Source: Candidatus Saccharimonadota bacterium (GTDB lineage Archaea; Nanohalarchaeota; Nanosalinia; Nanosalinales; Nanosalinaceae). From it: a DNA stretch of 32,000 nt. The notes below the pieces were generated by a model that was not told the origin of the DNA, searched no databases, and saw only the letters and a list, made by a program, of their open reading frames with translations. Shown in pieces: positions 1 to 32,000 of this stretch. Where the stretch lies: positions 150,001 to 182,000 of the forward strand of contig NZ_CP107255.1 of assembly GCF_029232205.1 (NCBI RefSeq). Reading direction: 5' to 3'. Position 1 is the first letter of the stretch; the number at the start of each line of letters is the position of its first letter. Position numbers and translations under genes: made by a program.

Positions 1-1205
1 CGTTCACATACAAAGCTGTAGAACCGGAAAAAGTCTCATTCAAACCGCTGGAATACGATAAACACATGCAGCTTGGAGAAATTCTGGATGAACACGAAAA
101 AGGCCAGAAATACGCATGGATTCTGGAAGACGAGGACAGATACCCGATAATTGAGGATTCTGAAGGAAAAGTGCTCAGCTTCCCGCCAATAATCAACAAC
201 CAGCTGACAGAAGTAGACTCCGAAACAACCGATATCTTCATCGACGTCACAGGAAAACACAGAGAAACAGTGATGAAGGCCCTCAACATCCTCACAACTG
301 CACTTTCTGAAAGAGGAGGCCAGATAGAATCAGTAACAGTCGACGGAGAAAAAATGCCGGATTTAACGCCTGAAGAAATGGAGCTTGATATCGAATACTT
401 CAGAGACATCTCAGGCCTTGATCTAGAACCAGAAGAAATTGTCAAAAGACTGGAAATGATGAAGCACGAGGCCAAAAAGAAGGGAGACAAGATCAAAGTC
501 AAGATTCCGGCCTACAGGAACGATATAATCCACCAGTACGACCTGATCGAGGAAGTTGTGATCGCACACCGGTACGACAATATAGAACCAGAAGTCCCAG
601 AAGTAGATCAAATGGCCTCAGTAAAACCTATTCAGGACTTCGCAGATAGAATAAGAGATGTAATGACAGGTGCCGGCGCTCTTGAAGCAAATACTTTCTA
701 CCTCTCCAGCAAGGAAAAAATCTTTGAAATGATGGAGATAGAGGAAAATGAAGTAGCAGAAGTAGCCAACGCATCAGGAGAGGAACAGGAGGTAGTCAGA
801 AACTGGCTTCTGCCATCACTGTTCCAGACACTGCACGATAACAGGCATCACAGCTATCCACAGACATTCTTCGAAGTATCCGATGTAGTAGAGCTCGACA
901 ACTCCAGAGTAGGAGCATCCAACAAAAAGAAGATGGCCTACATAGTAACAGGCAATGAAAAAGATTACACGGACGCAAGAGCAATCCTCCAGGTACTGGA
1001 AAGAGATCTAGGCCTTGAATTCGATGTACAGGAAAAATACCGGAGCTGCTTCAAAGAATCAAGATCAGCAGCAGTCTACTTCAAAGACAAGAGGGTAGGA
1101 ATAATCGGAGAGTTCTCAGAAGAAGTTATTGAAAACTGGGAGCTCAGCTATCCTGCAGCAGGCCTTGAACTGGACGTGGAAAAGATCCTTGAACTGAAAG
1201 AGTAA
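1..1205 (+). CDS. pheT: Phenylalanine--tRNA ligase beta subunit, archaeal type (5' end lies upstream of the window)
   Basis: The frame is open from the window edge (codons in phase with nt 3: FTYKAVEPEKVSFKPLEYDKH precedes the listed Met at 66). Stop codon TAA at 1203-1205. PheRS-beta hallmarks are present: VLSFPPIINN, IPAYRNDIIHQYDLIEEVVIAHRYDNI, and a C-terminal catalytic-like fold. Confidence 0.85.
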   Translation, partial: FTYKAVEPEKVSFKPLEYDKHMQLGEILDEHEKGQKYAWILEDEDRYPIIEDSEGKVLSFPPIINNQLTEVDSETTDIFIDVTGKHRETVMKALNILTTALSERGGQIESVTVDGEKMPDLTPEEMELDIEYFRDISGLDLEPEEIVKRLEMMKHEAKKKGDKIKVKIPAYRNDIIHQYDLIEEVVIAHRYDNIEPEVPEVDQMASVKPIQDFADRIRDVMTGAGALEANTFYLSSKEKIFEMMEIEENEVAEVANASGEEQEVVRNWLLPSLFQTLHDNRHHSYPQTFFEVSDVVELDNSRVGASNKKKMAYIVTGNEKDYTDARAILQVLERDLGLEFDVQEKYRSCFKESRSAAVYFKDKRVGIIGEFSEEVIENWELSYPAAGLELDVEKILELKE

Positions 1206-1246
1206 AGAAAAAAGAATTTTTGAAGGGTGGATGATGAACCCTGCGG

Positions 1247-1296
1247 GACCAAACTCTGCCGAGTTTGATCAGCTGAAGGCACAAAAAGTGCCTTTC
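1247..1296. terminator. Two adjacent stem-loops in the 127-nt spacer between convergent genes; possible bidirectional terminator
   Basis: 1250-1256 CAAACTC pairs with 1261-1267 GAGTTTG (7 bp, loop TGCC). 1276-1282 AAGGCAC pairs with 1288-1294 GTGCCTT (7 bp, loop AAAAA). A T5 run lies at 1309-1313. Function is inferred from position only. Confidence 0.3.
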
Positions 1297-1332
1297 GGAA
1301 GGGTTTGATTTTTGAGTGCTGACGCCCTGAAA

Positions 1333-1614
1333 TTATTCCTCATCGTTTTCTGAATTGGAATTGTCGTCAGGTTCCTCATGCGGACTCTCATCCTCTTCCT
1401 CTACTGCCACACTGTTTCTATCCTGTACTTCGCTCTCTGTAGGAATAATCAGCCAGGCCACAAGGTAAAGCAGAGGGCTCACTCCGGTAATAATCAGTAG
1501 CAACGTAATTAGGCGTACTACTGAAGGGTCAAAGCCGTAGACCTCAGCAATTCCTCCGCAAATACCGCCAAGGATTCTGTCAGTCTCCGACCGGTAAAGT
1601 CTGTTTTCTGCCAT
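1333..1614 (-). CDS. PspC-domain membrane protein with an acidic C-terminal tail
   Basis: N-terminus RLYRSETDRILGGICGGIAEVYGFDPSVVRLITLLL followed by a TM helix is the classic PspC-domain pattern. ATG start, with an A/T-rich box about 25 nt upstream. Confidence 0.75.
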   Translation of the reverse strand: MAENRLYRSETDRILGGICGGIAEVYGFDPSVVRLITLLLIITGVSPLLYLVAWLIIPTESEVQDRNSVAVEEEDESPHEEPDDNSNSENDEE

Positions 1615-1647
1615 TTTATTTCACACTACAAAGATTATATTCAAGGG

Positions 1648-2214
1648 TTAAATCTGTTCTTCTTCCTCATCAGTTGAGACACGACCTCCCTGCCACTGCC
1701 CCTCGTAATCGCGTACAAGGCCGCCAATAGCTTGTTTAAATACTATCTCGGCAACGCGAGCGCCTTCCTGAATCTCAAAGGTCTGATTGGAAACATTCTT
1801 CAAACCAAAAATCAGAGGCCCCTCATAACCTGGATTCGTATTCGTCCCTTTGAAGTACAGACCGCTTCTCTGCAGAGTACTTCTTGGATAGACATCAGGC
1901 ATCAAATGGGCCTCGGTCCCTCCAACCTCTACAGCATCGCTCGGAACCTCAACAGTCTCACGAGTCTTAATCAAGTAGTAATCGCCAGGCTCAAGAACAA
2001 GCGTGTCGCCAGAACCTTCCTCCAGAACTTTATCGCTGTCAGGAGTATCGCGGGTATCACGATGCAGAAAACCATCAGAACTCAGCTCAAAGGCCTCTCC
2101 CAGTCTTACTTCAAGGCCTACGCCTTCAGGATTTTCAAGCTCTCTATCAGCTAAATTATGAATCATTCCGTGCTCTTCACGCATTTCGAGCACTTTTCTC
2201 GCGGTAAGAATCAT
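1648..2214 (-). CDS. dcd: dCTP deaminase (dUTPase-fold)
   Basis: dCTP deaminase-like core: PRSTLQRSGL and TNPGYEGPLIFGLKNVSNQTFEIQEGARVAEIVF. I moved the start to the ATG at 2214 (MILTARKVLEM). The 2259 start would overlap the ndk 3' end and adds a non-acidic SFSLSF leader. Confidence 0.8.
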   Translation of the reverse strand: MILTARKVLEMREEHGMIHNLADRELENPEGVGLEVRLGEAFELSSDGFLHRDTRDTPDSDKVLEEGSGDTLVLEPGDYYLIKTRETVEVPSDAVEVGGTEAHLMPDVYPRSTLQRSGLYFKGTNTNPGYEGPLIFGLKNVSNQTFEIQEGARVAEIVFKQAIGGLVRDYEGQWQGGRVSTDEEEEQI

Positions 2215-2246
2215 AGAAAGAAAAAGGGAAAATGAAAGTGAAAAAC

Positions 2247-2744
2247 TTATCGAACCCACTCTTCTTGAGCGGTCTCAAAGTCGTGAATCTCGTCATCCTC
2301 AAACCAGATGCTGATCTCCTTCTCAGCTTCCTCTGGCTCAGCGGATGCGTGAATCAGGTTCTTGTGAAGCCGTCCGGACCCATCAGCGTGAGCGAATGAG
2401 ATGTGACCGTAAGTACCTCTGATTGTAGCAGGGTCGGCCTCAGTAGGATCTGTCTCTCCAACAATCTTTCTGATGTTCTCTACAGCATTAACACCTTCAA
2501 GAACCATTGCAACTACAGGCCCTTTCTTCATGTACTCTGCAAGCCTCTCGTAGAAATCCTTCTCTACGTGCTCCTCGTAATGCTCTTCAAGAAGATCATC
2601 TGTAGCCCATACCATCTTCATACCGCAGATCTTGAAACCTGCATTCTCAAAACGGGAGACAATCTCGCCAATAAGGCCTCTCTTAACAGTATCAGGTTTT
2701 AAAGCAACGAAAGTTTTCTCAACGTGTTCAAATTCTTCAGACAT
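2247..2744 (-). CDS. ndk: Nucleoside diphosphate kinase
   Basis: EKTFVALKPDTVKRGLIGEIVSRFENAGFKICGMKM, TIRGTYG, and the active-site region NLIHASAEPEEAEKEISIWF. The start is taken at the ATG at 2744 (MSEEFEH); the longer ORF start at 2828 overlaps the upstream gene. Confidence 0.9.
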   Translation of the reverse strand: MSEEFEHVEKTFVALKPDTVKRGLIGEIVSRFENAGFKICGMKMVWATDDLLEEHYEEHVEKDFYERLAEYMKKGPVVAMVLEGVNAVENIRKIVGETDPTEADPATIRGTYGHISFAHADGSGRLHKNLIHASAEPEEAEKEISIWFEDDEIHDFETAQEEWVR

Positions 2745-2784
2745 ATTTACACCTTCTATAACTAAAGTAGAGAAAGGAAATTTT

Positions 2785-3276
2785 TTAATTCGAATTCTCA
2801 GGAAGAGGCCTGTAAAAAGTCTGCTCACATGGCAGAAGAGTTACATTATCATTCTCAAGCCACTCAGTAGCAGTCTGATTCCTGTAAGAGGCCTCATCAG
2901 TCCATTCCATACCGCTTATATCCTCATTACAGATATTGTAGGCCTGCATCATCAACTCTGACTCAACCCTTCTGTAAAAGTTCGCGGTACCGGGCTCAAC
3001 CTCAGTATAATTATCGTAATTGTAAGTAGTATGATCCTGCTTCTGAAGACCCATACAGAAACCACCGGCCTCAACACCTACACACTCAACAGTAATCTCG
3101 GTGTAGCCAACTTTCTGACCAGTATCCGGCGCAAGAATATTATGAATGCCCAGCAGAAGAACAACAAGTCCAAGCGAAATACCTACATATTTGAGCTGTT
3201 CCTGAAGTTCCTCTGAAATCTCCTGGCCCATTACTTCCATACTCAGAAATCTGTTGACTATCTTCTTAAAACCCAC
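2785..3276 (-). CDS. Hypothetical membrane-anchored extracytoplasmic protein (one N-terminal TM, 4 Cys)
   Basis: One hydrophobic helix (YVGISLGLVVLLLGIHNILA) followed by an acidic domain of about 110 aa. No family recognised. The start is ambiguous (3276, 3240 or 3231). Confidence 0.5.
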   Translation of the reverse strand: MGFKKIVNRFLSMEVMGQEISEELQEQLKYVGISLGLVVLLLGIHNILAPDTGQKVGYTEITVECVGVEAGGFCMGLQKQDHTTYNYDNYTEVEPGTANFYRRVESELMMQAYNICNEDISGMEWTDEASYRNQTATEWLENDNVTLLPCEQTFYRPLPENSN

Positions 3277-3329
3277 TCCGGCCGAATATCGAGTATTTTA
3301 TCAATATTCGACTCGCCTGATTATACACG

Positions 3330-5195
3330 ATGCAGCTAGGAACAATCGAAGGAGAAGTCACCACATCATCATTCAAATTCCGAGCAGTGGAAGAAGTAAG
3401 AAAATTCGACTTCATCTCAGTAAAGAGCAACGAAAAATGGATACTAGGCCAAGTCGACGAAGTAACAAAGAAACCCGACGGCGAAACCATGGCCCATGCC
3501 AACATCATCGGATACAGAGACAAAGGCCTCACCAAAGCACCAAGAAGAGTAATAGAACCAGACTCAATAGTATACAAAGCAGACCAGGAACTAATATCGG
3601 ACACACTAGGCCTCGACGACGAAGGCCTCCGCATCGGAAACCTAGAAACCAATCCCGATATCGATATCCACGTTAACGCAGAGGACTTCTACAAACACTT
3701 TGCAGTACTGGCCCAGACAGGCGCAGGGAAATCATACCTGACAGGAGTGCTGATTGAGGAGATGCTGGAAGATGACTTCCCTGTACTGATACTTGATCCT
3801 CACGGAGAATACTCCTCGCTGCGACAGGAAAACCCGGAAAACGATGAAGAAAGACAGGCCTATGATATCAAGGAGTTCTCGCCAAACACAGATATCAATC
3901 CAGAGGCCGTACCGCTTAGATTCTCATCCAGGAACTTCGAGAAAAAAGAACTAACAACTCTAATTCCGGACTCACTGACAAACTCACAGATGGGAGTGCT
4001 CTACAACGCGTTGAAACGGCTGCAAGAGAAAGACGAAGACTACAACCTCAACGACTTGATGGACGCAGTCTCTAACGAAGACTCAACAGCCAAATGGAAC
4101 CTCCTCAACTATCTCGAGCAACTAGACGACTCAGGCCTTTTCTCCGACTCTCCAATGGATCTGGAGGAACTGGTCGAGCCAGGAAGAGCAACAATCATCA
4201 ATCTCAGAGCTGTAGAACCAGAAACAGCAGAAATGACAGCTTACATGCTCGCCAAGAAACTTTTCGACCTAAGAAAAAGAAACCAGATCCCGCCATTCAT
4301 AACAGTAATAGAAGAGGCCCACAACTTCACACCGGAAAAAGGATTCGGCCAGACAATCTCCAACCCAATACTAAGAAAAATAGCATCAGAAGGCCGTAAA
4401 TTCGGTCTAGGTCTCGGAGTAATCTCTCAGAGGCCGGCAAGAATCGACAAAAACGTATTATCTCAGGCCAACACACAGTTCATACTAAGAGTAACCAATC
4501 CAAACGATCTCAAGGCCATATCCAAGTCCTTTGAAGGAATAACAAGCGAAGTAGAGGATATGATCAAGTCGCTGCCGCCAGGAGTGGCCTTCGTACTAGG
4601 AAACGAGTATCCTGTTATGACTGATGTCAGAACACGTAAATCGAAGCACGGAGGAGAAACACAGACTTCAGACACCTATGTAGAGAAGGAAAGCGTGGAA
4701 GTCTTCGAAACAAGAAAATCTAGAGGCGAACTCGAATCAGAAACTGGGGAAAAGTACACTCCGGCCTACTATCCGCTTTATCTTCTCAAGAATGATGAGA
4801 AAAAAGTACTTGTCGATGGAGTAAAGAACAATATCAAGGCGGAGAGGCCTAAAATCTCTGGAAGTGAAAAAGAGGTCTACAAGAAGCTTCAGAGAGGAAA
4901 GGAGAAATCAGAAATTCTGGAAGACCTTGAAATGGATCTTTCAAAGCTAACGGCGATAATTGATGGCCTGCGAAAGAAAGGATTCGTGAAGGAGGGTTCA
5001 AACGACGTGGCGGAGTCAGTACTCGATCTTGAGATAGAGGATCAGAGTGTAGAGGCCGAAGAACTGATTGATTACGAGGTATCGGAGGACGAGGCCCGCT
5101 CACACCTGAAAAACTCGGAAGTCAGAAAAGTCCGCTACCCTTACTTTTCGAAGGGAGAAACTGTCTACGATCCGATTCTGGGTAAGGAAATCTAA
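3330..5195 (+). CDS. HerA-like (DUF87/COG0433-type) ATPase with a C-terminal extension of about 170 aa
   Basis: N-terminal HAS-barrel-like region. Walker A is FAVLAQTGAGKSY. Walker B region is FITVIEEAHNF. Conserved ASEGRKFGLGLGVISQRPARID and FILRVTNPND. The extension from about nt 4630 contains a winged-helix-like stretch (EVYKKLQRGKEKSEILEDLEMDLSKLTAIIDGLRKKGFVKE). Confidence 0.8.
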   Translation: MQLGTIEGEVTTSSFKFRAVEEVRKFDFISVKSNEKWILGQVDEVTKKPDGETMAHANIIGYRDKGLTKAPRRVIEPDSIVYKADQELISDTLGLDDEGLRIGNLETNPDIDIHVNAEDFYKHFAVLAQTGAGKSYLTGVLIEEMLEDDFPVLILDPHGEYSSLRQENPENDEERQAYDIKEFSPNTDINPEAVPLRFSSRNFEKKELTTLIPDSLTNSQMGVLYNALKRLQEKDEDYNLNDLMDAVSNEDSTAKWNLLNYLEQLDDSGLFSDSPMDLEELVEPGRATIINLRAVEPETAEMTAYMLAKKLFDLRKRNQIPPFITVIEEAHNFTPEKGFGQTISNPILRKIASEGRKFGLGLGVISQRPARIDKNVLSQANTQFILRVTNPNDLKAISKSFEGITSEVEDMIKSLPPGVAFVLGNEYPVMTDVRTRKSKHGGETQTSDTYVEKESVEVFETRKSRGELESETGEKYTPAYYPLYLLKNDEKKVLVDGVKNNIKAERPKISGSEKEVYKKLQRGKEKSEILEDLEMDLSKLTAIIDGLRKKGFVKEGSNDVAESVLDLEIEDQSVEAEELIDYEVSEDEARSHLKNSEVRKVRYPYFSKGETVYDPILGKEI

Positions 5196-5245
5196 TCCGT
5201 TCCTATTTTAAGAATTACTTATCCCTATCTATTATACGAACTCAC

Positions 5246-5319
5246 GGGTTCGTGGTCTAGTTGGTTATGACGTCGCCCTTACAAGGCGAAGATCCCCAGT
5301 TCGAATCTGGGCGAACCCA
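5246..5319 (+). tRNA. tRNA-Val (anticodon UAC), no encoded CCA, no intron
   Basis: Cloverleaf read by hand. Acceptor GGGTTCG/CGAACCC with discriminator A. Anticodon stem TCGCC/GGCGA with loop CTTACAA (anticodon TAC). T-arm CCCAG-TTCGAAT-CTGGG. Confidence 0.9.
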
Positions 5320-5482
5320 TCGTTCAAGGCTTATCAAGGCCTGAGCAGGATCTCTTATCATAAATCCTGCAGTATCTTGTAAGATTCAAAAAACTCAATG
5401 CCACACTTAACCTCATGGTGTTGTCACCAAAAGGTAAATAAACGTTGCATGGGAATAGTGAGAATGTGGCTAAGATTTCCCA

Positions 5483-5491
5483 TTTAATAAA
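5483..5491 (+). promoter_or_regulatory. TATA-like box for pth2-truD (leaderless arrangement)
   Basis: TTTAATAAA is centred about 29 nt upstream of the ATG at 5516. No Shine-Dalgarno sequence is present. Confidence 0.35.
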
Positions 5492-5515
5492 TCCGGAAAA
5501 ACAATATCTGATATT

Positions 5516-5863
5516 ATGACGCAGTACAAACAGGCCATCGTTTTGCAAGAGGACTTGAACATGTCTAAAGGAAAATCTATCGCACAGGCCTGTCACGCGT
5601 CACTGAAGGCCTATGAAAGGTCTGAAGATAAAATCCGGGAGAAATGGGATAAACAGGGAGCGAAAAAAGTTGCACTCGATATCGGCAACAAAGATATCAG
5701 GGTTCGGTTCCAAAAAGCAAAGGATGAAGGCCTACCAGCATATCTGGTGAAGGACGCTGGTCGGACCGAACTTAAATCTGGTACTGTAACAGCGCTCGGG
5801 ATTGGCCCTGCAGAAGAATCTAAAATCGATAGCATAACTGGAGATCTTGGCTTGATAGAATAA
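5516..5863 (+). CDS. pth2: Peptidyl-tRNA hydrolase, archaeal/eukaryal PTH2 type
   Basis: YKQAIVLQEDLNMSKGKSIAQACHASL, LVKDAGRTELKSGTVTALGIGP, and a length of 115 aa are typical of PTH2. Confidence 0.9.
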   Translation: MTQYKQAIVLQEDLNMSKGKSIAQACHASLKAYERSEDKIREKWDKQGAKKVALDIGNKDIRVRFQKAKDEGLPAYLVKDAGRTELKSGTVTALGIGPAEESKIDSITGDLGLIE

Positions 5864-7053
5864 TGGGTGAAGACGAAATGGAAATGGAGAATACTACAAT
5901 TAACTTGGTGGAAATGGACTGGGAGTACTACACTGATACTCTCGGTATTGAAGGCGTACTAAAAGAGCAGGTAAACGATTTCGTGGTGAGAGAGCTTGCC
6001 AGCCACGAAACAGGCGAAGGAGATCATCTTATCGTCAAGCTCCGAAAACAGAACATGACCACTATGGATGCCATTGGAAAGCTATCTAGCATGCTACACA
6101 TTTCCAAAGACAGGATAGGATACGCAGGAAACAAAGACAAGAAGGCCGTTACAGAACAGTACATCTCCGTTAAAGGAGTAGATCCAGAAGACATCCGAGG
6201 AATATACACTGACGAGTTCGATCTCGAAGTTGTAGGATACGGCCACAGAATTGGCATCGGAAATCTTTCTGCCAACAGATTCGAAATAACAATAAGAGAC
6301 CTCAACCTCCCAATCGAGGACCTGAGAAACAGAACACTGAAAATCGTCGATGAAATGGACGGCAAGTTCCCTAACTACTTCGGCCCACAGAGATTTGGTT
6401 CAACAAGACCAATTACACACCAGGTAGGCCGCCATCTTCTGAAAGGAAATTATGAGGAAGCAGTATGGACATACATCGCAAAGCCATACGACCAGGAATA
6501 CAAGAGCATCAGAAAGACAAGAGAAGAACTCTGGGAAACCAGAGAAGTAGAGGGTGCAGCAGAAAAATTCCCGAAAAAGTATCGATACGAGAAAACCCTG
6601 CTGTATCACCTGACAAAACACCCTGAAGACTATCAAGGCGCGATTAAAAGGCTGCCTGAAGGCCTACAAACACTTTTCATCCATGCATATCAATCATGGG
6701 TTTACAACCGAGTTCTCTCACAACTTCTCGAAGACGGATGGTACCAAGAAGATTATGAAATCCCTCTTGTCGGTTACAAGACAGATCTGAAAGATGAGAA
6801 ACCAGAAAACATAATGGAAGACGTCCTTGAGGAGGAAGGAGTATCACAGGACGACTTCAGACTATCTGACTTCCCAGAACTCAGGTCAGAAGGAAGCTAC
6901 AGGAGAGCATTCGCAGACTTCAGGAACTTTGAGATACTGGATATAGGAGACGACTCACTGAACATGGCCAAAAACAAGATGACTGTCAAGTTCGACCTAC
7001 CGAAAGGATCATACGCAACAGTATTTCTCAGAGAGATACAGAAGAACAACTAA
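5863..7053 (+). CDS. truD: tRNA pseudouridine synthase D (TruD/Pus7 family)
   Basis: Catalytic motif IGYAGNKDKKAVTEQYISV plus NYFGPQRFG. The start overlaps the pth2 stop (TAATG), suggesting translational coupling. Confidence 0.85.
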   Translation: MGEDEMEMENTTINLVEMDWEYYTDTLGIEGVLKEQVNDFVVRELASHETGEGDHLIVKLRKQNMTTMDAIGKLSSMLHISKDRIGYAGNKDKKAVTEQYISVKGVDPEDIRGIYTDEFDLEVVGYGHRIGIGNLSANRFEITIRDLNLPIEDLRNRTLKIVDEMDGKFPNYFGPQRFGSTRPITHQVGRHLLKGNYEEAVWTYIAKPYDQEYKSIRKTREELWETREVEGAAEKFPKKYRYEKTLLYHLTKHPEDYQGAIKRLPEGLQTLFIHAYQSWVYNRVLSQLLEDGWYQEDYEIPLVGYKTDLKDEKPENIMEDVLEEEGVSQDDFRLSDFPELRSEGSYRRAFADFRNFEILDIGDDSLNMAKNKMTVKFDLPKGSYATVFLREIQKNN

Positions 7054-7085
7054 CCCCTATTTTTCCTACTACCTCATCCCTAACT

Positions 7086-7098
7086 TTATTTTATTAAT
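7086..7098 (+). promoter_or_regulatory. TATA-like box upstream of the glycosyltransferase gene
   Basis: TTTATTTTATTAA is centred about 24 nt upstream of the ATG at 7116. No SD is present. Confidence 0.35.
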
Positions 7099-7115
7099 CG
7101 TTTAAACACAATAAC

Positions 7116-8537: not shown

Positions 8538-8539
8538 AG

Positions 8540-9498: not shown

Positions 9499-9501
9499 AG
9501 T

Positions 9502-13511: not shown

Positions 13512-14207
13512 ATGAAAAAGAAAGCTATCCTACTCCTGATCACAGCACTGTTTTTCATCTCAATGTCGTCCGCAGAGATAGCTATAACTGTCCCACAGCA
13601 GAACAAAGAAATAGAATCTCTCAAAACCAATTATCGTATCGGATTTATCAACAACGGCCCACAAAAGACAGTAAATCTAAGCTCAGATGCTCCAGAATAT
13701 CTAGATATTTCAATGCCTTCTACAGTAACTCTTCCTGAGTCCGGGCCTGAATCTACGCCTGAAGGAGATAACTGGTATCAGGTAGAGCCTGGAAAATACC
13801 TGAAAATTCATTACTACTCGATAGAGGTCTCAATAGATCCTCAGACAGATCAGAGAGATTTTAATTTTACTGTTTCGGCCGCTACTTCTCATCAATCAGG
13901 TGTGGCGAGGCCTGAGGTTGAAAATATCCGTCAACTTCTATTTACTTTAAGTACTACTTCGCCAGAGATAGATACTTCTTTTGACGGTGATTTATTTACT
14001 GAGAATGAAACTTCAGAGAATGAAGATCAGCAGTCGGATAGCGGTGTTGAGGAGAAGGAATTAAACTCTAGCAGTTCCTCTCAGAACCAGTCTGCTGAAA
14101 ATATTCAAGAAGAGGCAGAAGACTCTGGGTTTGACGGCCTCACTATTCTTCTGGCGGTAGGTATAACTGTTAGCGCAGCGTATGTTGTGCTGGAGGGATT
14201 CCTTTGA
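13512..14207 (+). CDS. Signal-peptide protein with one beta-sandwich-like domain, an acidic linker and a C-terminal TM anchor
   Basis: Signal peptide MKKKAILLLITALFFISMSSAEI, an acidic/Ser linker, and the terminal TM LTILLAVGITVSAAYVVLEGFL. It starts 3 nt after the upstream stop. Confidence 0.6.
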   Translation: MKKKAILLLITALFFISMSSAEIAITVPQQNKEIESLKTNYRIGFINNGPQKTVNLSSDAPEYLDISMPSTVTLPESGPESTPEGDNWYQVEPGKYLKIHYYSIEVSIDPQTDQRDFNFTVSAATSHQSGVARPEVENIRQLLFTLSTTSPEIDTSFDGDLFTENETSENEDQQSDSGVEEKELNSSSSSQNQSAENIQEEAEDSGFDGLTILLAVGITVSAAYVVLEGFL

Positions 14208-16462: not shown

Positions 16463-18021
16463 AGGTCTTCAACCACGTGCTTACATAGAGCAATAACTTC
16501 ATCGGCTTCTACGTCGATCTTCTTGATATATTGCTCTCTGTTCATGGTCTCAAAGAAGTCTGCAAGTTGTTTCATATTGTCCGAGTCCTCAGGCAACTGT
16601 TCTGCCAGCTCCTGGTATGTAAGTTCGCGTTTTATACCTAGCTCGGTCTCGAGATATCCTTTCATCACGTGAGCTGTCTTTACCGCTACCTCTCTATCGC
16701 TTTCAAGCTTGGAGTATTTATCAAGAACCTCTTTCACATCAGAATCATTCATACTGCCGTCATCGTCACCTTGGCCTTTATCATCGCTGTTCAGACGCGC
16801 ACTAATCTTTTCACGGAAGTTCTGAATCTTCTCTCTAGGCCCTCCACCTTCGTCTTCTTCCTCTTCATCTTCGCTATCTCTTACAGCCCCCATCAACATC
16901 TGAAGATCTTCCTCGGCCTCTTCACGCATCTCCTCCTGGGACTTATCAGAATCATCTTCCTCCCCATCAGAACTTTCCCGGCCTTCGTCAACATCAATTT
17001 CCAGCTCTTCTGCAATCTTTCGCAGATCTTCTGTGCTGGACTGCTGAAGTTTCTCAGGATCAAGGCCTTCATCTTTCAGGCCTCCGATCAGGCCTTCTCT
17101 CTCCTTCTTATCGTCTCTGATTGACTTCAATTCGTCGATAGGGATATTTTCGAGTTCGTTATCTGGCACATCCATGTCAATGTCTTCAAGTATCTCTTTT
17201 TTCTTCTCAAACTCGGAAACTTCTTCATTTTCTCCCTTGCTATCTCCTTCCTCTTTTTCCTCTGTTTCTTCTTCACTTTCGGCCTCTTCACTCTCTTCTT
17301 CTGATTTATCTTCCTCTTTATCATTTTTGGAATCCTCTTTTTCTTCTTCGGAGGCCTCTTCATTGTTTTCTTTGTCGTCAGAGTCTTCCTCGTCTTCGCT
17401 ATCCTCTTCCTCGGTTTCTGGTTCTTGTTCGCCGTTCTCTGATTCTTCATCTATGTCGGAGTCCTTTTCTACTGTTTCCAGATCGGATTCCAGTTTTTCA
17501 ATGTCTTCGCTGGTTTTCTCTAGATCTTTCTCTACTTTTTTCTGTCTTATTTTCTTCTCAAGGAATTTTTTGGCAGTCTTTCGATCCTTGACTTTTTTCT
17601 CGGAGTTTAGAAGTGTCTGCATTACTTCTACGCTAGGATTGTTTTCTGTTACATATTTCTTGATGTCTGCAACTGTTCCACCAACTAGATCAAGGAGATC
17701 TTCCTGGCTGACGTCCTCTGCCTGGTCTCCATCAAATTCTGCGCTTTCAAGTTCCGTTACTTCGTTCATAAGGCCTTCAATATGTTCGAGTTCGTCCTCT
17801 GCCAGGCCCAATTTCTGCGATACCTTCTGTTTCTCCATCTGTCTGTCAATTATCTCGAGAACTTTCTCTCTGTTTTTTCCTGATTGTTCGGCCGATCTGA
17901 GAATTTCAAGGTCGTTGACAGGTACCTCTCTGCTTTCAATCTCTGATCTGAATTCTTCTACGCTGCTTGTTGTCAGTGATGAGATGTCGTTGATCTCGAG
18001 TTTTTCCAGTTCGTCGGCCAT
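16459..18021 (-). CDS. Hyper-acidic low-complexity protein, last gene of the MoxR operon
   Basis: Same strand as the VWA gene and 31 nt downstream of it. I prefer the ATG at 18021 (MADELEKLE) over the TTG at 18030. There are two 48-aa related segments near the N-terminus, a central Glu/Asp/Ser/Lys tract, and a C-terminal 80 aa resembling DUF4129-type domains seen in MoxR/DUF58 neighbourhoods (RELTYQELAEQLPEDSDNMKQLADFFETMNREQY). Confidence 0.6.
   Translation of the reverse strand: MADELEKLEINDISSLTTSSVEEFRSEIESREVPVNDLEILRSAEQSGKNREKVLEIIDRQMEKQKVSQKLGLAEDELEHIEGLMNEVTELESAEFDGDQAEDVSQEDLLDLVGGTVADIKKYVTENNPSVEVMQTLLNSEKKVKDRKTAKKFLEKKIRQKKVEKDLEKTSEDIEKLESDLETVEKDSDIDEESENGEQEPETEEEDSEDEEDSDDKENNEEASEEEKEDSKNDKEEDKSEEESEEAESEEETEEKEEGDSKGENEEVSEFEKKKEILEDIDMDVPDNELENIPIDELKSIRDDKKEREGLIGGLKDEGLDPEKLQQSSTEDLRKIAEELEIDVDEGRESSDGEEDDSDKSQEEMREEAEEDLQMLMGAVRDSEDEEEEDEGGGPREKIQNFREKISARLNSDDKGQGDDDGSMNDSDVKEVLDKYSKLESDREVAVKTAHVMKGYLETELGIKRELTYQELAEQLPEDSDNMKQLADFFETMNREQYIKKIDVEADEVIALCKHVVEDL
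17221..17463 (-). repeat. Low-complexity GAA/GAG/GAT-rich tract encoding an E/D/S/K run of about 80 aa
   Basis: The plus strand reads as TTC/CTC/TCT-rich repeats. It translates on the minus strand to DIDEESENGEQEPETEEEDSEDEEDSDDKENNEEASEEEKEDSKNDKEEDKSEEESEEAESEEETEEKEEG. Confidence 0.7.
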
Positions 18022-21007: not shown

Positions 21008-21017
21008 AGGTTAAGCT

Positions 21018-22151
21018 CTATCTCTGAGCGCTCTGGTCTGATGTCACATAGAATGTGATCTGACCTTGTGAAACTCCTCCCTGTGGAACTCCCTGTGGAA
21101 CTTCAATTGCTGTGTCCACGGTTAGTCCTTCTCCTGGGAGAAGCATTCTCTCAGGGTTGGCGGAGTCTGCGTTCAGAAGGAACTGTGATCGTTCTCCAGT
21201 CTCAGTTCCTGCTGTCAGGTCATCTACGTCTCCTGCCTGGACATTGTAACGGGTTCTAATTGTCCCTGCGTCAGAAATTGCTGACTTACCTGTATCACAA
21301 CCGGTAAGTACATCGTACTCTCTGTAGCTTCCGTCAGACATGTTGAGTCTGATACCAGTCTCTCCGTCTCCTGACTTTGTTGCTACACCGTAGCTTCCTG
21401 TTGTTGATACGATGTTATACTCTCTCCAGTCTCCTGGCCCGCTGTCTGTGAAGTCAACGGTTCCGAATGAGTCTGGGGAGTGAGCTGTGTTTCCTACTCG
21501 GATGATACTTGGACCACTTGAACCATCGCAGATGTCGTCAGATGCTACTGGGATTACCCAGAAGTACCATTCGCTTCCTGCTCTGAATCTTCCAACGTAT
21601 ACATCGTCAACACCTGAATCTACTTCTGTAGGTGCTGCTTCGATGTAAGAGGGAATATCTCCTCTTTCACTACTCCATGAGTTTGCATACTCATGTCTAT
21701 TAACGTAGTGATATGTTGATGTGTTTCCTCTTACTGAGGATTTCGAAGAAGAGTTTGCAGGTTTGATCTGTAGGAAGTTTCCTGCGTCATATTCTCCTGG
21801 AAGTCCTGTTCCGAAAGGATTGTCGGAAGGTGCCGTAGCTGACGTCCAAACTCGATCAATGTACTCTGAACCAATATTTTCCAGTTCAATTGATCCAAAA
21901 CTGTTTCCTCCGTTGTCTCCTGTTAGAGTTTGAGTTCCTACGTCAAGACTGTTATAGTCTAGAGACTCTGGCTTGACATCGATCGCTGTCTTACTGGCTA
22001 CAGATACTGTGATATTAGAGCTTTCTGAAGTGTTAACGTCGCCATCACTTGTGTTCTGAGTGTTATCTCCTTCAAGAGATTGTGCTGTCGCTGAGAAAGC
22101 CATTCCGAATGCTAGAAGTGCTACTGCTAGAATTGTCAATTTTTTATTCAT
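21018..22151 (-). CDS. Secreted protein without a membrane anchor; candidate abundant surface or matrix subunit
   Basis: Signal peptide MNKKLTILAVALLAFGMAFSATAQS. Gly/Ser/Thr/Asp-rich beta-type sequence (IDVKPESLDYNSLDVGTQ...IELENIGSEYI). Full SD GGAGGTGA sits 4 nt before the ATG, and an oligo-T terminator follows. Codon and k-mer usage is atypical (see findings). Confidence 0.7.
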   Translation of the reverse strand: MNKKLTILAVALLAFGMAFSATAQSLEGDNTQNTSDGDVNTSESSNITVSVASKTAIDVKPESLDYNSLDVGTQTLTGDNGGNSFGSIELENIGSEYIDRVWTSATAPSDNPFGTGLPGEYDAGNFLQIKPANSSSKSSVRGNTSTYHYVNRHEYANSWSSERGDIPSYIEAAPTEVDSGVDDVYVGRFRAGSEWYFWVIPVASDDICDGSSGPSIIRVGNTAHSPDSFGTVDFTDSGPGDWREYNIVSTTGSYGVATKSGDGETGIRLNMSDGSYREYDVLTGCDTGKSAISDAGTIRTRYNVQAGDVDDLTAGTETGERSQFLLNADSANPERMLLPGEGLTVDTAIEVPQGVPQGGVSQGQITFYVTSDQSAQR

Positions 22152-22155
22152 ATTG

Positions 22156-22442: not shown

Positions 22443-22459
22443 ATATTAATCTATTAAAG
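22443..22459 (+). promoter_or_regulatory. TATA-like box for the 22483-27773 gene run
   Basis: ATATTAATCTATTAAAG, with TATTAAAG centred about 27 nt upstream of the ATG at 22483. No SD is present. Two AGGGCCTG copies flank it (22414-22421 and 22458-22465). Confidence 0.35.
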
Positions 22460-22482
22460 GGCCTGAGACCAAATAAATTCTT

Positions 22483-24073: not shown

Positions 24074-24810
24074 TCCTGTCACTTTCAACGGCCTCAGCAC
24101 TCAGCCTACAGGTAACAATCGACTCTATAACTACAGCCGATGTTAAGAATGTGCAGTTCCAGGAGAACTCATCTATCAGCAATGTTAATGCTTCAATAAT
24201 GAACACAGGCTCCATAGGCTGCCAGTACAGATTAAAGCTATCCTACACCTATGCAAATGATACTTACTCATCATACTCAGATAGAAAGGCCCTATGGCCG
24301 GGAGCCTCTGAACTTGCAGAACTGAAGGCGCCTGTATTCAACTATACAGGCCCTGTTAACTCCAGTCTTTACGTAATGTACTGCGATCAAATTAGAGGGC
24401 TTGAAAACTTCACTTTCACGTCCACAGAGAACATCACAGTTAACTCCAGTGTCGAAAGCACTACAAGGTCTGTAACTGAGGAAGAGGCCTCTCTTGAGCT
24501 CGGTGTTGAGAGTGGAGAGCTTGTTCCTGTTGATACACCGCCTTACTGGAAGGCTTCGTACGCTGAGATAGAGAATGGCTCGGCTACTGTAGAGTATGAG
24601 GCCCCGATCTTTGATGAACGGCAGAACCTGACCTATCTGGTTAAATCTGGCGATGAGATTCTTGGAACTACAGAGGTTCAGCTTGAGGCCCGGAAAACGT
24701 TTGTAGATAGGATTATGAGTGTGGACAGGAAGTGGCTTTTCGGCCTGATCGGTTTCCTTGCTCTGATCAACGTCTTTCTGCTTTACAGAACTCTAACAAA
24801 CAGGAATTAA
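24034..24810 (+). CDS. Signal-peptide protein with a C-terminal TM anchor
   Basis: Signal peptide MARNKVLVLLTAVILSLSTASA. SD-like GGAGGGG lies 4 nt before the ATG. Many N-x-S/T sequons. C-terminal TM WLFGLIGFLALINVFLLY. It overlaps the previous gene by 40 nt in another frame. Confidence 0.6.
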   Translation: MARNKVLVLLTAVILSLSTASALSLQVTIDSITTADVKNVQFQENSSISNVNASIMNTGSIGCQYRLKLSYTYANDTYSSYSDRKALWPGASELAELKAPVFNYTGPVNSSLYVMYCDQIRGLENFTFTSTENITVNSSVESTTRSVTEEEASLELGVESGELVPVDTPPYWKASYAEIENGSATVEYEAPIFDERQNLTYLVKSGDEILGTTEVQLEARKTFVDRIMSVDRKWLFGLIGFLALINVFLLYRTLTNRN

Positions 24811-24845
24811 AGATTTAAAGTAGTCCGCGAACAAATACCATCTAG

Positions 24846-27773: not shown

Positions 27774-27799
27774 CTGGTTTTAGAAGATAAAAATTCTCT

Positions 27800-28579
27800 T
27801 TAATTTAGGTTTCCTGATAGGTTGCCAAGTTTTCTCTTCAGTTTGGCGAATCTGGGCCTCTGGTATTCGTGGCCTCCTACTGATGCTGCGAGTTCTTTTA
27901 TTTCGAGTGCGGCTTCTGCGAGTGGTTCGTGTTTGACTAGTGGTTCGCTTTCGAAGAGGCTTTTTCTCATTGTGTGGTCGTGTGGTATCTGGTGGAGGAT
28001 GTGTGATTCTGTCATCATTTCTATTTCTCTGTCGATGAGTTCGATTTCTGGGTCTCCGGATACTTTGTTGACTACGGTGCCAAGTACTGGTTGTCTGAGT
28101 TCTTTGGCTTTTTCGATTATCTGTGCTGCGTTTACGCCTGATGTCTGTGTTGGCATTGTGACTATCATTAGTTCGTCGACTGACATCATGATGTTTTCTA
28201 CTGTTGAGTTCAGGCCTGGAGGGCAGTCTACAAGTACATAGTCTGATTGTTCTGCTGCTGTTTCCAGTACCTCTCTCAGGTTTGAGATGTCGGGTTCGAC
28301 GAAGTCTATTTCGTTGGATGATACGATTCCTTTGATGCCTGTTGGGTGTCTGAATATTGCTGATTCTGGTTCGGCATCTCCCTGTAGAACTTCCTGTATT
28401 TTGACAGGGTGGTCGTATCGGCCCAAGTATACTCCCAGGTTAGAAGCTGCGAAGTCAGCGTCGACTATAGTTACTTCGTTGCCGAAGTCGCTTAGGGATA
28501 CTCCCAGGTTTACTGTTAGGCTGGTCTTTCCTACTCCACCTTTTCCTGAAATAAGGCCTATTATCCTGCCTTTAGACAT
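27800..28579 (-). CDS. minD: MinD/ParA-family P-loop ATPase (archaeal MinD-like)
   Basis: Deviant Walker A IGLISGKGGVGKTSLTVNLG. Also IVDADFAASNL and YVLVDCPPGL. The basic C-terminal tail is RPRFAKLKRKLGNLSGNL. Confidence 0.85.
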   Translation of the reverse strand: MSKGRIIGLISGKGGVGKTSLTVNLGVSLSDFGNEVTIVDADFAASNLGVYLGRYDHPVKIQEVLQGDAEPESAIFRHPTGIKGIVSSNEIDFVEPDISNLREVLETAAEQSDYVLVDCPPGLNSTVENIMMSVDELMIVTMPTQTSGVNAAQIIEKAKELRQPVLGTVVNKVSGDPEIELIDREIEMMTESHILHQIPHDHTMRKSLFESEPLVKHEPLAEAALEIKELAASVGGHEYQRPRFAKLKRKLGNLSGNLN

Positions 28580-29139: not shown

Positions 29140-31653
29140 TTATCTCAGGGAGTATTTTTTCCCGTCATCGTCTTCCTCTACTTCTATTTTGCCTTCTTTT
29201 GCCAGCCATCCGAGAGCTTGGTTTAGCTTGTTGGAGTTGACTCCTGATGCTGTTTCCAGTATCTTGTTGGCTGTTGCTGTTCCTTGCTGGTTGAGTGTGT
29301 CGTAGATCTGGCCTGCGGTACTTCCTATGTCGGCCTCTACATCTACCTCTACTTCTACGCTGCTTCTTTCGTCCTGATTTTCCTCGATCTCTGCTACTTT
29401 CATGATTGTTTCGAGGGCCACGTCTGGTGACACTGAGATGGCGTCGATTCCTGCGTCTACAAGGAATTCTGCGTATTCGTCGTGGGTGGATGGTGCGTCT
29501 CCACAGATTCCTACGTGCCTGTCTTTTCTGTGGGCCTTGTTGATCAAGGTTCTTACTGATTTCTTGACGGCTTCATCTCTTTCGTCGAATACGTGTTTCA
29601 GTTTGTCGCTGTTTCGATCGACTCCAAGTGTGAGCTGTGTGAGGTCGTTCGTACCTACTGAGAATCCTTCGAACATCTCTGAAAACTCCTCAGCACGCAA
29701 GATGTTGGCTGGTATCTCAGCCATGACGTATACCTCTATGTCTCCCTTGTCTAGGCCATACTCTTTCATCTTTGCCCTGACTTTTCTGGCTTCTTCCATG
29801 GTTCTGCAGAAAGGTACCATGACTGTCAGATTGTCAAGGCCTAGTTCGTCGACGCATTTGCGCAGTGCCTTGCATTCGAGTTCGAAGGCCTTTGTGAATT
29901 CTTCGTCGTAGTAGCGGGATGCTCCTCTGAATCCGAGCATTGGGTTGGCTTCGTCTGGCTCGTATTTTTCTCCTCCTTCAAGCTGTGCGTATTCGTCGGA
30001 TTTGAAGTCGGATAGTCTGACTACTACCTGGTCTGGGTAGAATGCTGCCGCGATTTTTCCAATTCCGGATCTGAGGGCCTCTACGTATTCGTCTCCTCTG
30101 TCCTGTTCGATGAGGTGGAGAGGGTGTTCTCCTACGTGGCTGGAAATGATGAATTCTTCTCTTGCTAGGCCTACTCCGTCGACTGGTAGCTGTGCGAGGT
30201 TGAAGACCTCTGATGGTTCTCCGATGTTGATCTGTACATCGGTTTCTGTTTCCGGTATTTCGTCTAGGTGGTGTTCTTCGATGTCGAAGTCGAGTTCTCC
30301 TTCCCAGATTTTTCCTGTTGAGCTGCTGCCGTCTACTGTTACGTCCTGTCCATCGTGGAGGCTGGATGTCGCTGTTTCTGTTCCGATTACTGCTGGTACT
30401 CCGAGTTCTCTGGATACGATTGCTGCGTGGCTTGTTCGGCCTCCTTTGTTGGTGATGATTGCTCCGGCCTTCTTCATGATTGGCTCCCAGTCTGGGTCAG
30501 TCATGTCTGTTACGAGGACTTCTCCTTCCTCGAACTGGTCGATCTGTTTCGGACTGTCGAGGACGTGGGCCTCTCCGGATCCGATTTTTGATCCGATGGC
30601 TGATCCTTCGAGAAGTACTTCAGATTCTTCTCTGAGTTTGTAGTCTTTGATTACGTTTTCGTCTTTTTCGGACTGTACGGTTTCTGGCCGGGCCTGTACG
30701 ATGTAGAGTTCTTTGGTTTGGCCGTCTAGAACCCATTCGATGTCCATTGGTTTTCCGTAGTGTTCTTCGATTTTCAGGCCATATTTTGCGAGTTCCTTGA
30801 CCTGGTTGTCGGTTACGCAGAATTTTTCTCTTTCGTCCTGTGGTACTTTGACTCTTTCGTTGTCTTTTCCTTCTTCTTCGCTTCTTACGAGTTTGATTTC
30901 TTTGTCGCCGACTTTTCGTTCAAGTATTCCAAGGTTTCTTTTCAGTACTGTGAATTCGTCCGGGTTTACTTCGCCTGCGACGACGAGGTCTCCTAGGCCG
31001 TATGCTGCGTTGATTGTGACTACATCTTCGAATCCGCTGTCTGGATCCATGGTGAACATGACTCCTGCGCTTCCTGTGTCGGAGCGGCCCATTTTCTGGA
31101 CTACTGCGGAAAGTTTGACGTCGAAGTGGCTGAATCCTTTGTCTTCACGGTATGAGATTGCTCTGTTTGTGAATAGGGATGCGAAGCAGGCCTTGATTTT
31201 CTGAATTAGTTCTTTTTCTCCTGATACGTTGAGGTATGTGTCTTGCTGGCCTGCGAAGCTTGCTCCTGGCAGGTCTTCTGCTGTTGCGGAGGAACGTACT
31301 GCTACTTTTGGTTCGTCGACTCCCAGTTTTTCTTCGAGTTCTCTGTATGATTTTACAAAGCTTTTTCTGAGGTCTTCGGGCATGTCTGCGTCTTGGATGT
31401 GGCCTCTGATTTTTTCTCCTCTCTTCTGTATATTGTTTACGTCGTCGACGTCTAGGTCTGAGAGAAGGTTTTCGATTGTGCTTTTGAGGCCGGTTTCCTT
31501 CATGAATTGTTCGTAGGCGTCCGCTGTTGTAGCGAATCCTGGTAGTACAGGTACGTCTACTTCGTTTTGAAGTTCTCCGAGGTTAGCGCTTTTACCTCCC
31601 ACGCGGGAAGTATCGTCTGCTGTAATGTTTTCGAACCAGAGTACGTTCGGCAT
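29140..31653 (-). CDS. ppsA: Phosphoenolpyruvate synthase with a C-terminal winged-helix extension of about 79 aa
   Basis: N-terminus VLWFENITADDTSRVGGKSANLGEL. Phosphohistidine motif GGRTSHAAIVSRELGVPAV. PEP-utilizer barrel motifs SVGTNDLTQLTLG and HVGICGDAPS. The extra C-terminal segment is IGSTAGQIYDTLNQQGTATANKILETASGVNSNKLNQALGWLAKEGKIEVEEDDDGKKYSL. Confidence 0.9.
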   Translation of the reverse strand: MPNVLWFENITADDTSRVGGKSANLGELQNEVDVPVLPGFATTADAYEQFMKETGLKSTIENLLSDLDVDDVNNIQKRGEKIRGHIQDADMPEDLRKSFVKSYRELEEKLGVDEPKVAVRSSATAEDLPGASFAGQQDTYLNVSGEKELIQKIKACFASLFTNRAISYREDKGFSHFDVKLSAVVQKMGRSDTGSAGVMFTMDPDSGFEDVVTINAAYGLGDLVVAGEVNPDEFTVLKRNLGILERKVGDKEIKLVRSEEEGKDNERVKVPQDEREKFCVTDNQVKELAKYGLKIEEHYGKPMDIEWVLDGQTKELYIVQARPETVQSEKDENVIKDYKLREESEVLLEGSAIGSKIGSGEAHVLDSPKQIDQFEEGEVLVTDMTDPDWEPIMKKAGAIITNKGGRTSHAAIVSRELGVPAVIGTETATSSLHDGQDVTVDGSSSTGKIWEGELDFDIEEHHLDEIPETETDVQINIGEPSEVFNLAQLPVDGVGLAREEFIISSHVGEHPLHLIEQDRGDEYVEALRSGIGKIAAAFYPDQVVVRLSDFKSDEYAQLEGGEKYEPDEANPMLGFRGASRYYDEEFTKAFELECKALRKCVDELGLDNLTVMVPFCRTMEEARKVRAKMKEYGLDKGDIEVYVMAEIPANILRAEEFSEMFEGFSVGTNDLTQLTLGVDRNSDKLKHVFDERDEAVKKSVRTLINKAHRKDRHVGICGDAPSTHDEYAEFLVDAGIDAISVSPDVALETIMKVAEIEENQDERSSVEVEVDVEADIGSTAGQIYDTLNQQGTATANKILETASGVNSNKLNQALGWLAKEGKIEVEEDDDGKKYSLR

Positions 31654-31755
31654 AATATTTTAGAATGGAAAAGCCCTGAATTTAAAGAGAGCGTTATGAT
31701 TCAAGGGTAAAAAAGATCTGCAGAAAAGTTTTTCTGTTTCGTCAGGCCCTGAAAG

Positions 31756-32000
31756 CTATTTTTCGACAAGTACGCGGTCGATTCTTCCTACTTCTGGTCC
31801 TGAGGTGTCCTGGCCTGTGACTACTGCGTTGTCGTTCGTGAGGATTCCTGCTCCTACGAAAGGTGATCCTGTGTTTACTGTTCCAATATCTGCGTGTTCT
31901 ACGTCCAGTACTTCTTTTACCTTTTCAGCTGTTTCTTCTGAGGTATCTCTGTGCAGTAGGACTCCTCTGCTGTTTGCTGCTCCGCATGAGCCAGGGTTCG
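31756..32000 (-). CDS. eif6: Translation initiation factor 6 (aIF6), 3' portion only
   Basis: Not in the ORF track because it has no start in the window. The minus-strand translation from the window edge is NPGSCGAANSRGVLLHRDTSEETAEKVKEVLDVEHADIGTVNTGSPFVGAGILTNDNAVVTGQDTSGPEVGRIDRVLVEK followed by TAG. This is the repeated eIF6 subdomain pattern. Confidence 0.8.
   Translation of the reverse strand, partial: NPGSCGAANSRGVLLHRDTSEETAEKVKEVLDVEHADIGTVNTGSPFVGAGILTNDNAVVTGQDTSGPEVGRIDRVLVEK

Follow-up and report, generated by a model that had tools for sequence, protein, structure and literature searches.

A clade-restricted excess of the palindrome AGGCCT in the DNA of Candidatus Nanohalovita haloferacivicina and its closest relatives

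Highly iterated palindromes (HIPs) have been known from cyanobacteria for three decades, and no mechanism or function has been agreed for them. HIP1 (GCGATCGC) and the alternate HIPs GGCGCC, GCCGGC and GCsGC are GC-rich palindromes that occur far more often than Markov and codon nulls predict (PMC4390886, PMC5861425), and the alternate HIPs co-occur with cognate methyltransferases (PMC4390886). Here we describe a comparable excess of the palindrome AGGCCT and its core GGCC in a stretch of 32,000 nucleotides (nt), referred to below as the window, from the nanohaloarchaeon Candidatus Nanohalovita haloferacivicina BNXNv. The BNXNv chromosome measures 1,046,959 bp with a guanine-plus-cytosine (GC) content of 45.0% (PMC10266531); the window covers about 3% of the genome, and genome-wide statements are extrapolations. 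A sequence-only reading of the window, which first drew attention to the word, knew of no such motif in halophilic nano-sized archaea, and our search of the literature found no description of a GGCC or AGGCCT excess in nanohaloarchaea or in any archaeon.

The nearest described parallel is the still-unexplained HIPs of cyanobacteria, with which the sequence-only reading had compared the word. Like HIPs, AGGCCT lies scattered over intergenic DNA and all three phases of genes, belongs to no longer repeat, is unexplained by codon or amino-acid usage and is lineage-specific; like the alternate HIPs, it is the recognition word of known type II methyltransferases. Unlike HIP1 (Xu et al. 2018), its sites seem to be conserved between BNXNv and the related strain M3_22 little better than a generic pressure would predict. 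It also differs in its host, a DPANN archaeon rather than a cyanobacterium, in its length (6 bp with a 4-bp core, against 8 bp for HIP1) and in that a cognate methyltransferase is only putative in BNXNv. At ~7.4 GGCC and 2.4 AGGCCT per kb, the sites are about 7-fold denser than HIPs (~1 per kb), whereas the excess is lower, 3-13 fold against 15-300 fold. Long-range periodicity, over 10-90 kb, is a further trait of HIPs; in BNXNv, spacing was assessed at short range within the 32 kb of the window.

In Escherichia coli, the Dcm methyltransferase and very-short-patch (VSP) repair by Vsr leave CCWGG enriched and CTWGG depleted, and VSP repair corrects only T:G mismatches at methylated cytosine. 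There, as in BNXNv, a word of the cytosine-methyltransferase type is over-represented and a repair bias is suspected, but in BNXNv the effect is much larger and reaches every one of the six positions and every alternative base. GC-biased gene conversion is independent of any sequence word, while DNA uptake sequences (DUS), uptake signal sequences (USS) and Chi are long asymmetric words. What the BNXNv case would share with these drives is a non-adaptive or weakly adaptive fixation bias, genome-wide in action, that mimics selection, opposes codon optimisation and spills over into amino acids; the target is different, a short symmetric hexamer without extended context rather than a long asymmetric word with a strand bias.

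Readers of the exact palindrome are known, also in archaea and in hypersaline communities, from the StuI (AGGCCT) and HaeIII, SuaI and PhoI (GGCC) classes of enzymes. GGCC methyltransferases are common in archaea, for example the N4-methylcytosine enzymes M.SuaI and M.PhoI (PMC11033074), a GGCC system is predicted in Haloquadratum walsbyi (PMC11431627), and a cytosine-methylating system specific for AGGCCT (modified as AgGCcT) is documented in Alcanivorax borkumensis (PMC12128166). In A. borkumensis SK2, nearly all of the 1,674 AGGCCT sites are cytosine-methylated by an active restriction-modification (R-M) system (PMC12128166); the word is apparently not avoided there, which is unusual if so.

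Over-representation and codon choice in the window

At a GC content of 44.8%, the window holds 237 GGCC and 78 AGGCCT, where a zero-order model expects 80.7 and 6.1. The sequence-only reading had come very close by hand, with ~235 and ~78 sites at ~45% GC against expectations of ~80 and ~6, or excesses of ~3-fold and >10-fold. A first-order model expects ~60 GGCC, and shuffles that preserve dinucleotides yield 6.8±2.5 AGGCCT with a maximum of 15. Across the loci examined, the AGGCCT excess is ~11-13x over expectation in BNXNv and its closest relatives, and most of it is carried by silent codon positions.

Two outcomes had been named in advance as speaking against a genuine iterated palindrome: unremarkable Markov scores, and reproduction of the counts by codon-preserving shuffles. 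Neither was found in the window. Under a maximal-order Markov model, GGCC is the outstanding 4-mer of the window (z = 19.6) and AGGCC/GGCCT are the outstanding 5-mers (z = 8.2); the hexamer itself is the product of its flanks, with no excess beyond what independent flanks give (78 against 143x135/237 = 81.5). The codon nulls were run on a set of 31 open reading frames (ORFs) that cover 96% of the window. When synonymous codons were shuffled within genes and the proteins kept, GGCC dropped to 86±6.9 against 232 coding sites seen (z = 21) and AGGCCT to 15.2±3.6 against 78 (z = 17), and codon permutation left 74.5 and 8.1. CCGG and GCGC, two control palindromes, were unremarkable under the same nulls. 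A single codon-pair or amino-acid bias therefore fails to account for the word, as had been argued from the sequence, and, as with HIPs, over-representation holds against the Markov null (GGCC) and against codon-preserving nulls (GGCC and AGGCCT).

The sites are spread evenly, with 10-19 GGCC per 2 kb, and the excess is seen in genes of either orientation (7.9 and 7.0 sites per kb). Spacing is near-exponential (coefficient of variation 0.90) with a mild shortage of short gaps; no helical or regular spacing was seen in the window, and a GGCC-free gap of 980 bp is tolerated. No tandem repeat or longer repeat unit carrying the sites was found in the window, and outside the core information is confined to positions -1 (A, 60%) and +1 (T, 57%), the logo being flat beyond ±1, so the sites are not part of a longer repeat. 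The statements of the sequence-only reading about placement were largely accurate: AGGCCT does occur in all three codon phases, the examples given for each being correct (Table 1), and 122 of the 159 non-hexamer sites are half-extended. Of its two non-coding examples, the site at 5337-5342 is truly intergenic, while that at 22426-22431 lies 13-18 nt inside a called ORF of 98 amino acids (22148-22444, minus strand). Intergenic DNA is enriched, with 6 GGCC in 1,471 nt against 2.1 expected. The genes concerned are ordinary archaeal housekeeping genes (PheRS-beta, dCTP deaminase, NDK, HerA, PTH2, TruD, MoxR/DUF58/VWA, ParA and phosphoenolpyruvate (PEP) synthase), and the 96% of the window that is coding is probably transcribed.

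Codon choice reveals how the word is favoured once the amino acid is held fixed and site-completing contexts are compared with other contexts. Glycine is encoded by GGC in 72% of cases when the next base is C and in 17% otherwise, at the expense of both GGA (0.53 to 0.09) and GGT (0.25 to 0.10); alanine is GCC in 62% of cases after a G and in 15% otherwise. Gln, Glu and Lys codons end in G in 84% of cases before GCC, against 42% before other Ala codons, and Arg AGR codons are AGG in 81% of cases before Pro, against 20% elsewhere. The flanks behave likewise: a 4-fold wobble base is A in 88% of cases before GGC-C (44% otherwise), and Pro is CCT in 73% of cases after GG (41% otherwise). All six positions of A-GGCC-T are thus pushed towards the consensus (odds ratios 4-17), and every alternative base loses ground, be it A, T or G, with A losing most.

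Which word is the target follows from sites whose flanks are fixed by the protein. The use of GCC for Ala after G is 0.81 when both A and T flank the site, 0.77 with A only, 0.65 with T only and 0.30 with neither, above a baseline of 0.16; the same test gives 0.10-0.16 in every class in relatives outside the clade. Over the whole sequence, the observed/expected ratio is 12.7 when both flanks match the consensus, 3.8 when one does and 0.88 when neither does, a pattern that M3_22 and the metagenome contig L146 repeat. The optimum is hence the StuI hexamer AGGCCT and not bare GGCC: the unit under pressure is the hexamer, its half-sites are roughly additive, and bare GGCC is only weakly favoured, about 2-fold. 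The pressure acts at the DNA level and not through codon bias, is specific for the site, and reaches both intergenic DNA and all three phases of genes.

Its reach extends beyond silent positions. BNXNv and M3_22 realise a fraction of 0.35 of the GGCC sites that are synonymously encodable, against 0.065-0.153 in relatives, and at diverged positions of orthologous proteins the gain of dipeptides able to encode GGCC was ~30% greater in the clade than in relatives of similar GC, whereas control comparisons of relative with relative were balanced. The pressure shifts some amino-acid pairs, a spill-over at the protein level.

One gene resists. The only clear cold spot in GGCC coincides with the gene for a 377-amino-acid protein of secreted or surface type (Table 1). 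The protein carries a signal-like segment at its N-terminus, abounds in Ser, Gly, Thr and Asp, and matches no Pfam or NCBIfam family. Its orthologue in the likewise enriched contig L181 (7962-9140, plus strand; 72% amino-acid identity) realises 1 of 29 encodable sites, and the family extends phylum-wide in Nanohaloarchaea, with 94 homologues. The gene strongly favours A-ending codons and rejects those that the sites would use (GGC 1/42, GCC 2/27, AGG 0/15). Recent horizontal transfer of 21018-22151 was considered and ruled out, given the equally GGCC-free orthologue, the phylum-wide family and a codon bias of the kind seen at high expression. By synteny alone (next to MoxR/DUF58/vWFA), the gene pairs with SVXNc_0246, whose reads per kilobase per million (RPKM) of 55,024 exceed those of elongation factor EF-1alpha (41,878) and are roughly 50 times those of its neighbours. 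The protein is probably an unannotated major cell-surface (S-layer-like) protein of nanohaloarchaea. In this gene, with its extremely highly expressed SVXNc counterpart, translational selection appears to override the pressure for AGGCCT, from which it follows that the pressure would carry a translational cost elsewhere.

Distribution in the clade and turnover of sites

The sequence-only reading had proposed a comparison with related genomes, and this places the excess in a single clade. BNXNv is reported to group with M3_22 (PMC10443357), the nearest genome in the species collection, whose TruD is 96% identical. Enriched sequences are BNXNv, M3_22 (locus L002), the metagenome contigs L146 and L147 (from JGI; TruD 91%) and contig L181 (ENA ERZ28435099 k141_48445, 1-19140). 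They were set against 14 other nanohaloarchaeal loci (L003-L011 and L148-L152; TruD 70-81%, GC 40-55%). Observed GGCC stands at 2.94 times the zero-order expectation in the BNXNv window, 2.55 times in M3_22, about 2.6 times in L146 and L147, and 0.54-1.07 times in the 14 other loci, where AGGCCT ranges from 0 to 2.8x. No tetramer differs from relatives of similar GC content nearly as much as GGCC does (4.4-fold). The odds ratio for site-completing codons falls from 11-14 in BNXNv to 6-8 in M3_22 and L146 and 2.4-3.6 in L181, and is 0.4-1.8 in six non-enriched relatives tested alike. L181 (GC 51%), in which AGGCCT is 5.3-fold over expectation, shows a weaker form of the trait and may represent an early-branching or a decaying state. 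Assemblies made independently agree on the signal, which is present in reads of BNXNv cultures (Logan), in the genome of M3_22 and in metagenome contigs from JGI and ENA. The excess is confined to the Nanohalovita/M3_22 clade, is graded within it and tracks phylogeny, as the presence of HIPs does.

Outside the clade the sign is reversed. In relatives L003-L011, GGCC falls mildly below the Markov expectation (observed/expected 0.67-0.94, z down to -4.4), and Haloquadratum, which lives in the same brines, avoids the word too. Avoidance was therefore the ancestral state, which the clade has reversed. BNXNv and M3_22 are only ~79% identical at the DNA level and share the excess nonetheless, so the trait has been maintained over a long divergence.

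Between BNXNv and M3_22, 59% of GGCC sites are shared by position, against 40% for an average 4-mer. At 209 shared encodable sites, joint occurrence is 60, where dipeptide and phase class predict 51.7, and with an identity of 48.5% at 4-fold wobble positions between the two genomes, residual ancestry can cover the surplus. Joint conservation near the class expectation, near-random spacing and the tolerated 980-bp gap together suggest a generic pressure more than a function of one site after another. Sites lost between BNXNv and M3_22 have turned into one-off variants of every kind, with no transition hotspot among them (13 transitions at outer and 8 at inner positions, 22 transversions), and the near-identical contigs L146 and L147 differ by only 12 single-nucleotide polymorphisms, 0 of them inside a site. 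Depletion of one-off neighbours in comparison with relatives was also tried as a mutational signature and set aside as too noisy, as the unrelated tetramers CCCC and CCGG change as much.

Candidate explanations

The symmetric pattern over six positions implies that AGGCCT is read as double-stranded DNA by a two-fold-symmetric protein that is special to the clade or differently used in it. Our best guess at what lies behind the excess, held tentatively and at somewhat less than even odds, is a repair or conversion drive linked to DNA modification. The ancestor of the clade would have acquired or altered a protein reading double-stranded AGGCCT with two-fold symmetry, most likely a cytosine-modifying enzyme of the StuI/HaeIII type without an effective restriction partner. 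A modified site would then bias the choice of strand in mismatch repair or gene conversion, such that mutations creating a site are preferentially kept and those destroying one preferentially reverted, the ratchet that Elhai proposed for cyanobacterial HIPs. The outcome would be a molecular drive akin to biased gene conversion, with no benefit attached to any single site. Such a drive fits the generic character of the pressure, its strength and cost, its spill-over into proteins and its graded strength in the clade. That an orphan AGGCCT/GGCC modification enzyme coupled to modification-directed repair or conversion constitutes a hitherto unrecognised, sequence-specific drive in a DPANN clade is the more specific claim, and we hold it with slightly less confidence still. 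If true, about a third of the permissible positions in a 1-Mb genome have been rewritten against translational optimality, and AGGCCT would be denser than any iterated palindrome described so far and the first one known from outside cyanobacteria.

Several observations weigh against a modification-linked drive. Neither a methyltransferase nor Vsr nor any other modification gene was found in the window and the examined clade DNA, which amount to ~5% of a genome: a tblastn search of this DNA with the PDB-validated M.HaeIII gave no match, scans for (S/D/N)PP(Y/F/W) and PCQ motifs in all nanohaloarchaeal ORFs examined gave nothing, and Pfam and NCBIfam scans of the window proteins returned no C5-methyltransferase, Vsr or T:G glycosylase. 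The same M.HaeIII query against 5.8 billion proteins returned, among its best 120 matches, only close bacterial relatives of HaeIII, which is uninformative on BNXNv. The published description of BNXNv lists only a type III Mod/Res system and no methylome (PMC10266531). The ratchet model is unproven for HIPs themselves, and Xu et al. argue that HIP1 is under selection and not the product of biased repair (PMC5861425). One GGCC per ~135 bp is far above the saturation of roughly one per kb that the model allows (PMC4390886), strand-directed mismatch repair in BNXNv is presumed only, and the tests run do not formally separate drive from diffuse selection for site density.

Direct selection for density is the serious rival, though we consider it unlikely on balance. 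AGGCCT would then provide sites for a clade-specific protein, and the cell would benefit from having many of them: for a nucleoid or chromatin organiser, as a mark of self DNA against the cell's own nucleases that degrade scavenged DNA, or as a signal for recombination or uptake. Selection fits the symmetric six-position pattern, the additive half-sites and the specificity for the clade equally well. It has precedent in the argument that HIP1 is selected and linked to chromosome structure (Xu et al., PMC5861425), and HIP1 is also reported to be linked to transformation and a type IV secretion system; nanohaloarchaea are, moreover, thought to import environmental DNA for nucleotides (PMC10266531). 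What selection accommodates poorly is that conservation of single sites seems to stay within the reach of a generic pressure, that the sites are spaced almost at random and leave a stretch of nearly 1 kb empty, and that a per-site log-odds of ~2.5 would have to be paid by thousands of sites, each of tiny benefit, in codons that the surface-protein gene rejects.

The sequence-only reading had offered, as its other model, the skew left by a cytosine methyltransferase with very-short-patch repair. In such a Dcm/Vsr-type skew, a GGCC 5-methylcytosine methyltransferase and a T:G mismatch endonuclease or glycosylase would restore GGTC or GGCT to GGCC and so inflate the site. GGCC is over-represented and GGTC (0.63) and GGCT (0.68), together with GGCG (0.63), are lower than in relatives, as such a skew predicts in part. 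However, at fixed amino acids the displacement is greater for alternatives ending in A than for those ending in T; the bias is as strong at the outer C, the two Gs and the two flanks as it is at the inner C; the losses between BNXNv and M3_22 lack a transition hotspot; and the examined clade DNA yielded no C5-methyltransferase. T:G repair of the Vsr type is contradicted as sole cause, and we regard the model as improbable.

Still less probable is selection for AGGCCU in transcripts, whether as a site for an RNA-binding protein or an RNase or for RNA-RNA pairing. Most of the window is coding, and the palindrome stands in the sense strand of genes on both strands; because it reads alike in messengers from either strand, strand symmetry alone is no argument against an RNA motif. 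There is, however, no reason for an RNA motif to be a perfect reverse-complement palindrome with flanks of symmetric strength, the excess is also present in what little intergenic DNA the window has, and the word is avoided in the gene with the highest expected transcript abundance.

A conventional R-M system for GGCC or AGGCCT with an active endonuclease is very improbable as the force shaping the genome, since it is contradicted in direction. Systems of this kind exist in archaea and in co-habiting halophiles, but active restriction yields avoidance, and the window is enriched 3- to 13-fold. Hqr. walsbyi, for which a GGCC system is predicted, shows strong avoidance of GGCC on chromosome and plasmids alike (PMC3119063, PMC11431627), which excludes classical restriction in direction, and the non-enriched nanohaloarchaea, too, lean mildly towards avoidance. 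A paired R-M system in BNXNv could, on the other hand, be the source of the methyltransferase for a drive. Finally, although GGC, GCC, AGG and CCT are ordinary codons and Gly and Ala abound in halophile proteins, the idea that the excess simply follows from codon, dipeptide or codon-pair usage, base composition or an assembly artefact is refuted, as shuffles and permutations yield only about a third of the GGCC and a fifth to a tenth of the AGGCCT, relatives of the same GC content with orthologous proteins lack the excess, and independent assemblies agree.

Whatever its cause, a HIP-like phenomenon is now at hand in Archaea, in the ~1-Mb genome of a cultivable symbiont. Sister lineages without the excess and a clade of graded strength form a comparative series in which the responsible gene can be traced by presence and absence; a quantitative handle is provided by odds ratios for each position and by a probably highly expressed gene that withstands the pressure; and as BNXNv is cultivated and its genome tiny, the question of drive versus selection that surrounds the HIPs becomes directly testable. 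The bias distorts analyses of codon usage, tetranucleotide binning and genomic islands in genomes of the clade, and conversely serves as a compositional fingerprint for the clade in metagenomes. That Haloquadratum avoids GGCC in the same brines raises ecological questions on the exchange of DNA, and on pressure from restriction, where hosts and symbionts live together.

Site coordinates and further observations

Table 1. GGCC and AGGCCT features of the window (positions within the 32,000 nt; a dot marks features without assigned strand)
Feature	Position	Strand	Remarks
GGCC sites (237)	1..32000	.	78 with both consensus flanks (AGGCCT), 122 with one, 37 without; on average 134 bp apart
AGGCCT, phase xxA GGC CTx (TCA GGC CTT)	413..418	+	PheRS-beta gene; phase 0 (GGC, C), 108 coding GGCC
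AGGCCT, phase xAG GCC Txx (CAG GCC TGT)	5586..5591	+	PTH2 gene; phase 2 (xxG, GCC), 98 sites
AGGCCT, phase AGG CCT (Arg-Pro)	13908..13913	+	phase 1, 26 sites
Intergenic AGGCCT	5337..5342	.	18 nt downstream of tRNA-Val (5246-5319)
Tightest cluster	17063..17095	.	3 AGGCCT within 33 bp, no tandem repeat; inside gene 16459-18030 (-)
GGCC cold spot, gene for 377-amino-acid secreted/surface-type protein	21018..22151	-	1/31 encodable GGCC realised

The 98-amino-acid ORF that holds the AGGCCT at 22426-22431 overlaps the start of the surface-protein gene by 4 nt. The latter gene also lies in a segment of 17.4 kb (window 11054-28505) that is missing at the syntenic junction of M3_22 (L002 15202-15220) and includes, besides, unknown proteins of 601, 752, 523 and 975 amino acids, MoxR/DUF58/VWA and ParA. 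L181 has the segment in synteny, and gene order indicates it in SVXNc as well. Its GGCC content is of the native kind, which points to a loss or move of the segment in M3_22 and not to an insertion in BNXNv.

Clade DNA or viruses were also sought in IMG/VR with the pattern AGGCCT-N(0-30)-AGGCCT-N(0-30)-AGGCCT, and this route was abandoned, as the 120 loci listed were all non-halophilic, with an acidic/basic ratio of ~1. Several of the contigs recovered (L027, L105, L070, L067 and L133; GC 33-37%, viruses of non-halophile character) have a 3- to 7-fold excess of GGCC, in some mostly outside ORFs; they are unrelated to the clade, and recovery by the motif biases the sample.

Other words are short in the window. 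GCGC and CGCG stand at ~0.36-0.38 of expectation and are mostly low in relatives too, GTAC has a Markov z of -7, and TTATAA occurs 2 times against 10.6 expected (two-strand counts). These shortages may be footprints of other restriction systems or of a CpG-type depletion. Among the housekeeping genes, PEP synthase (29140-31653, minus strand) carries a C-terminal winged-helix domain (DUF2582, residues 774-829), an unusual fusion for this enzyme.

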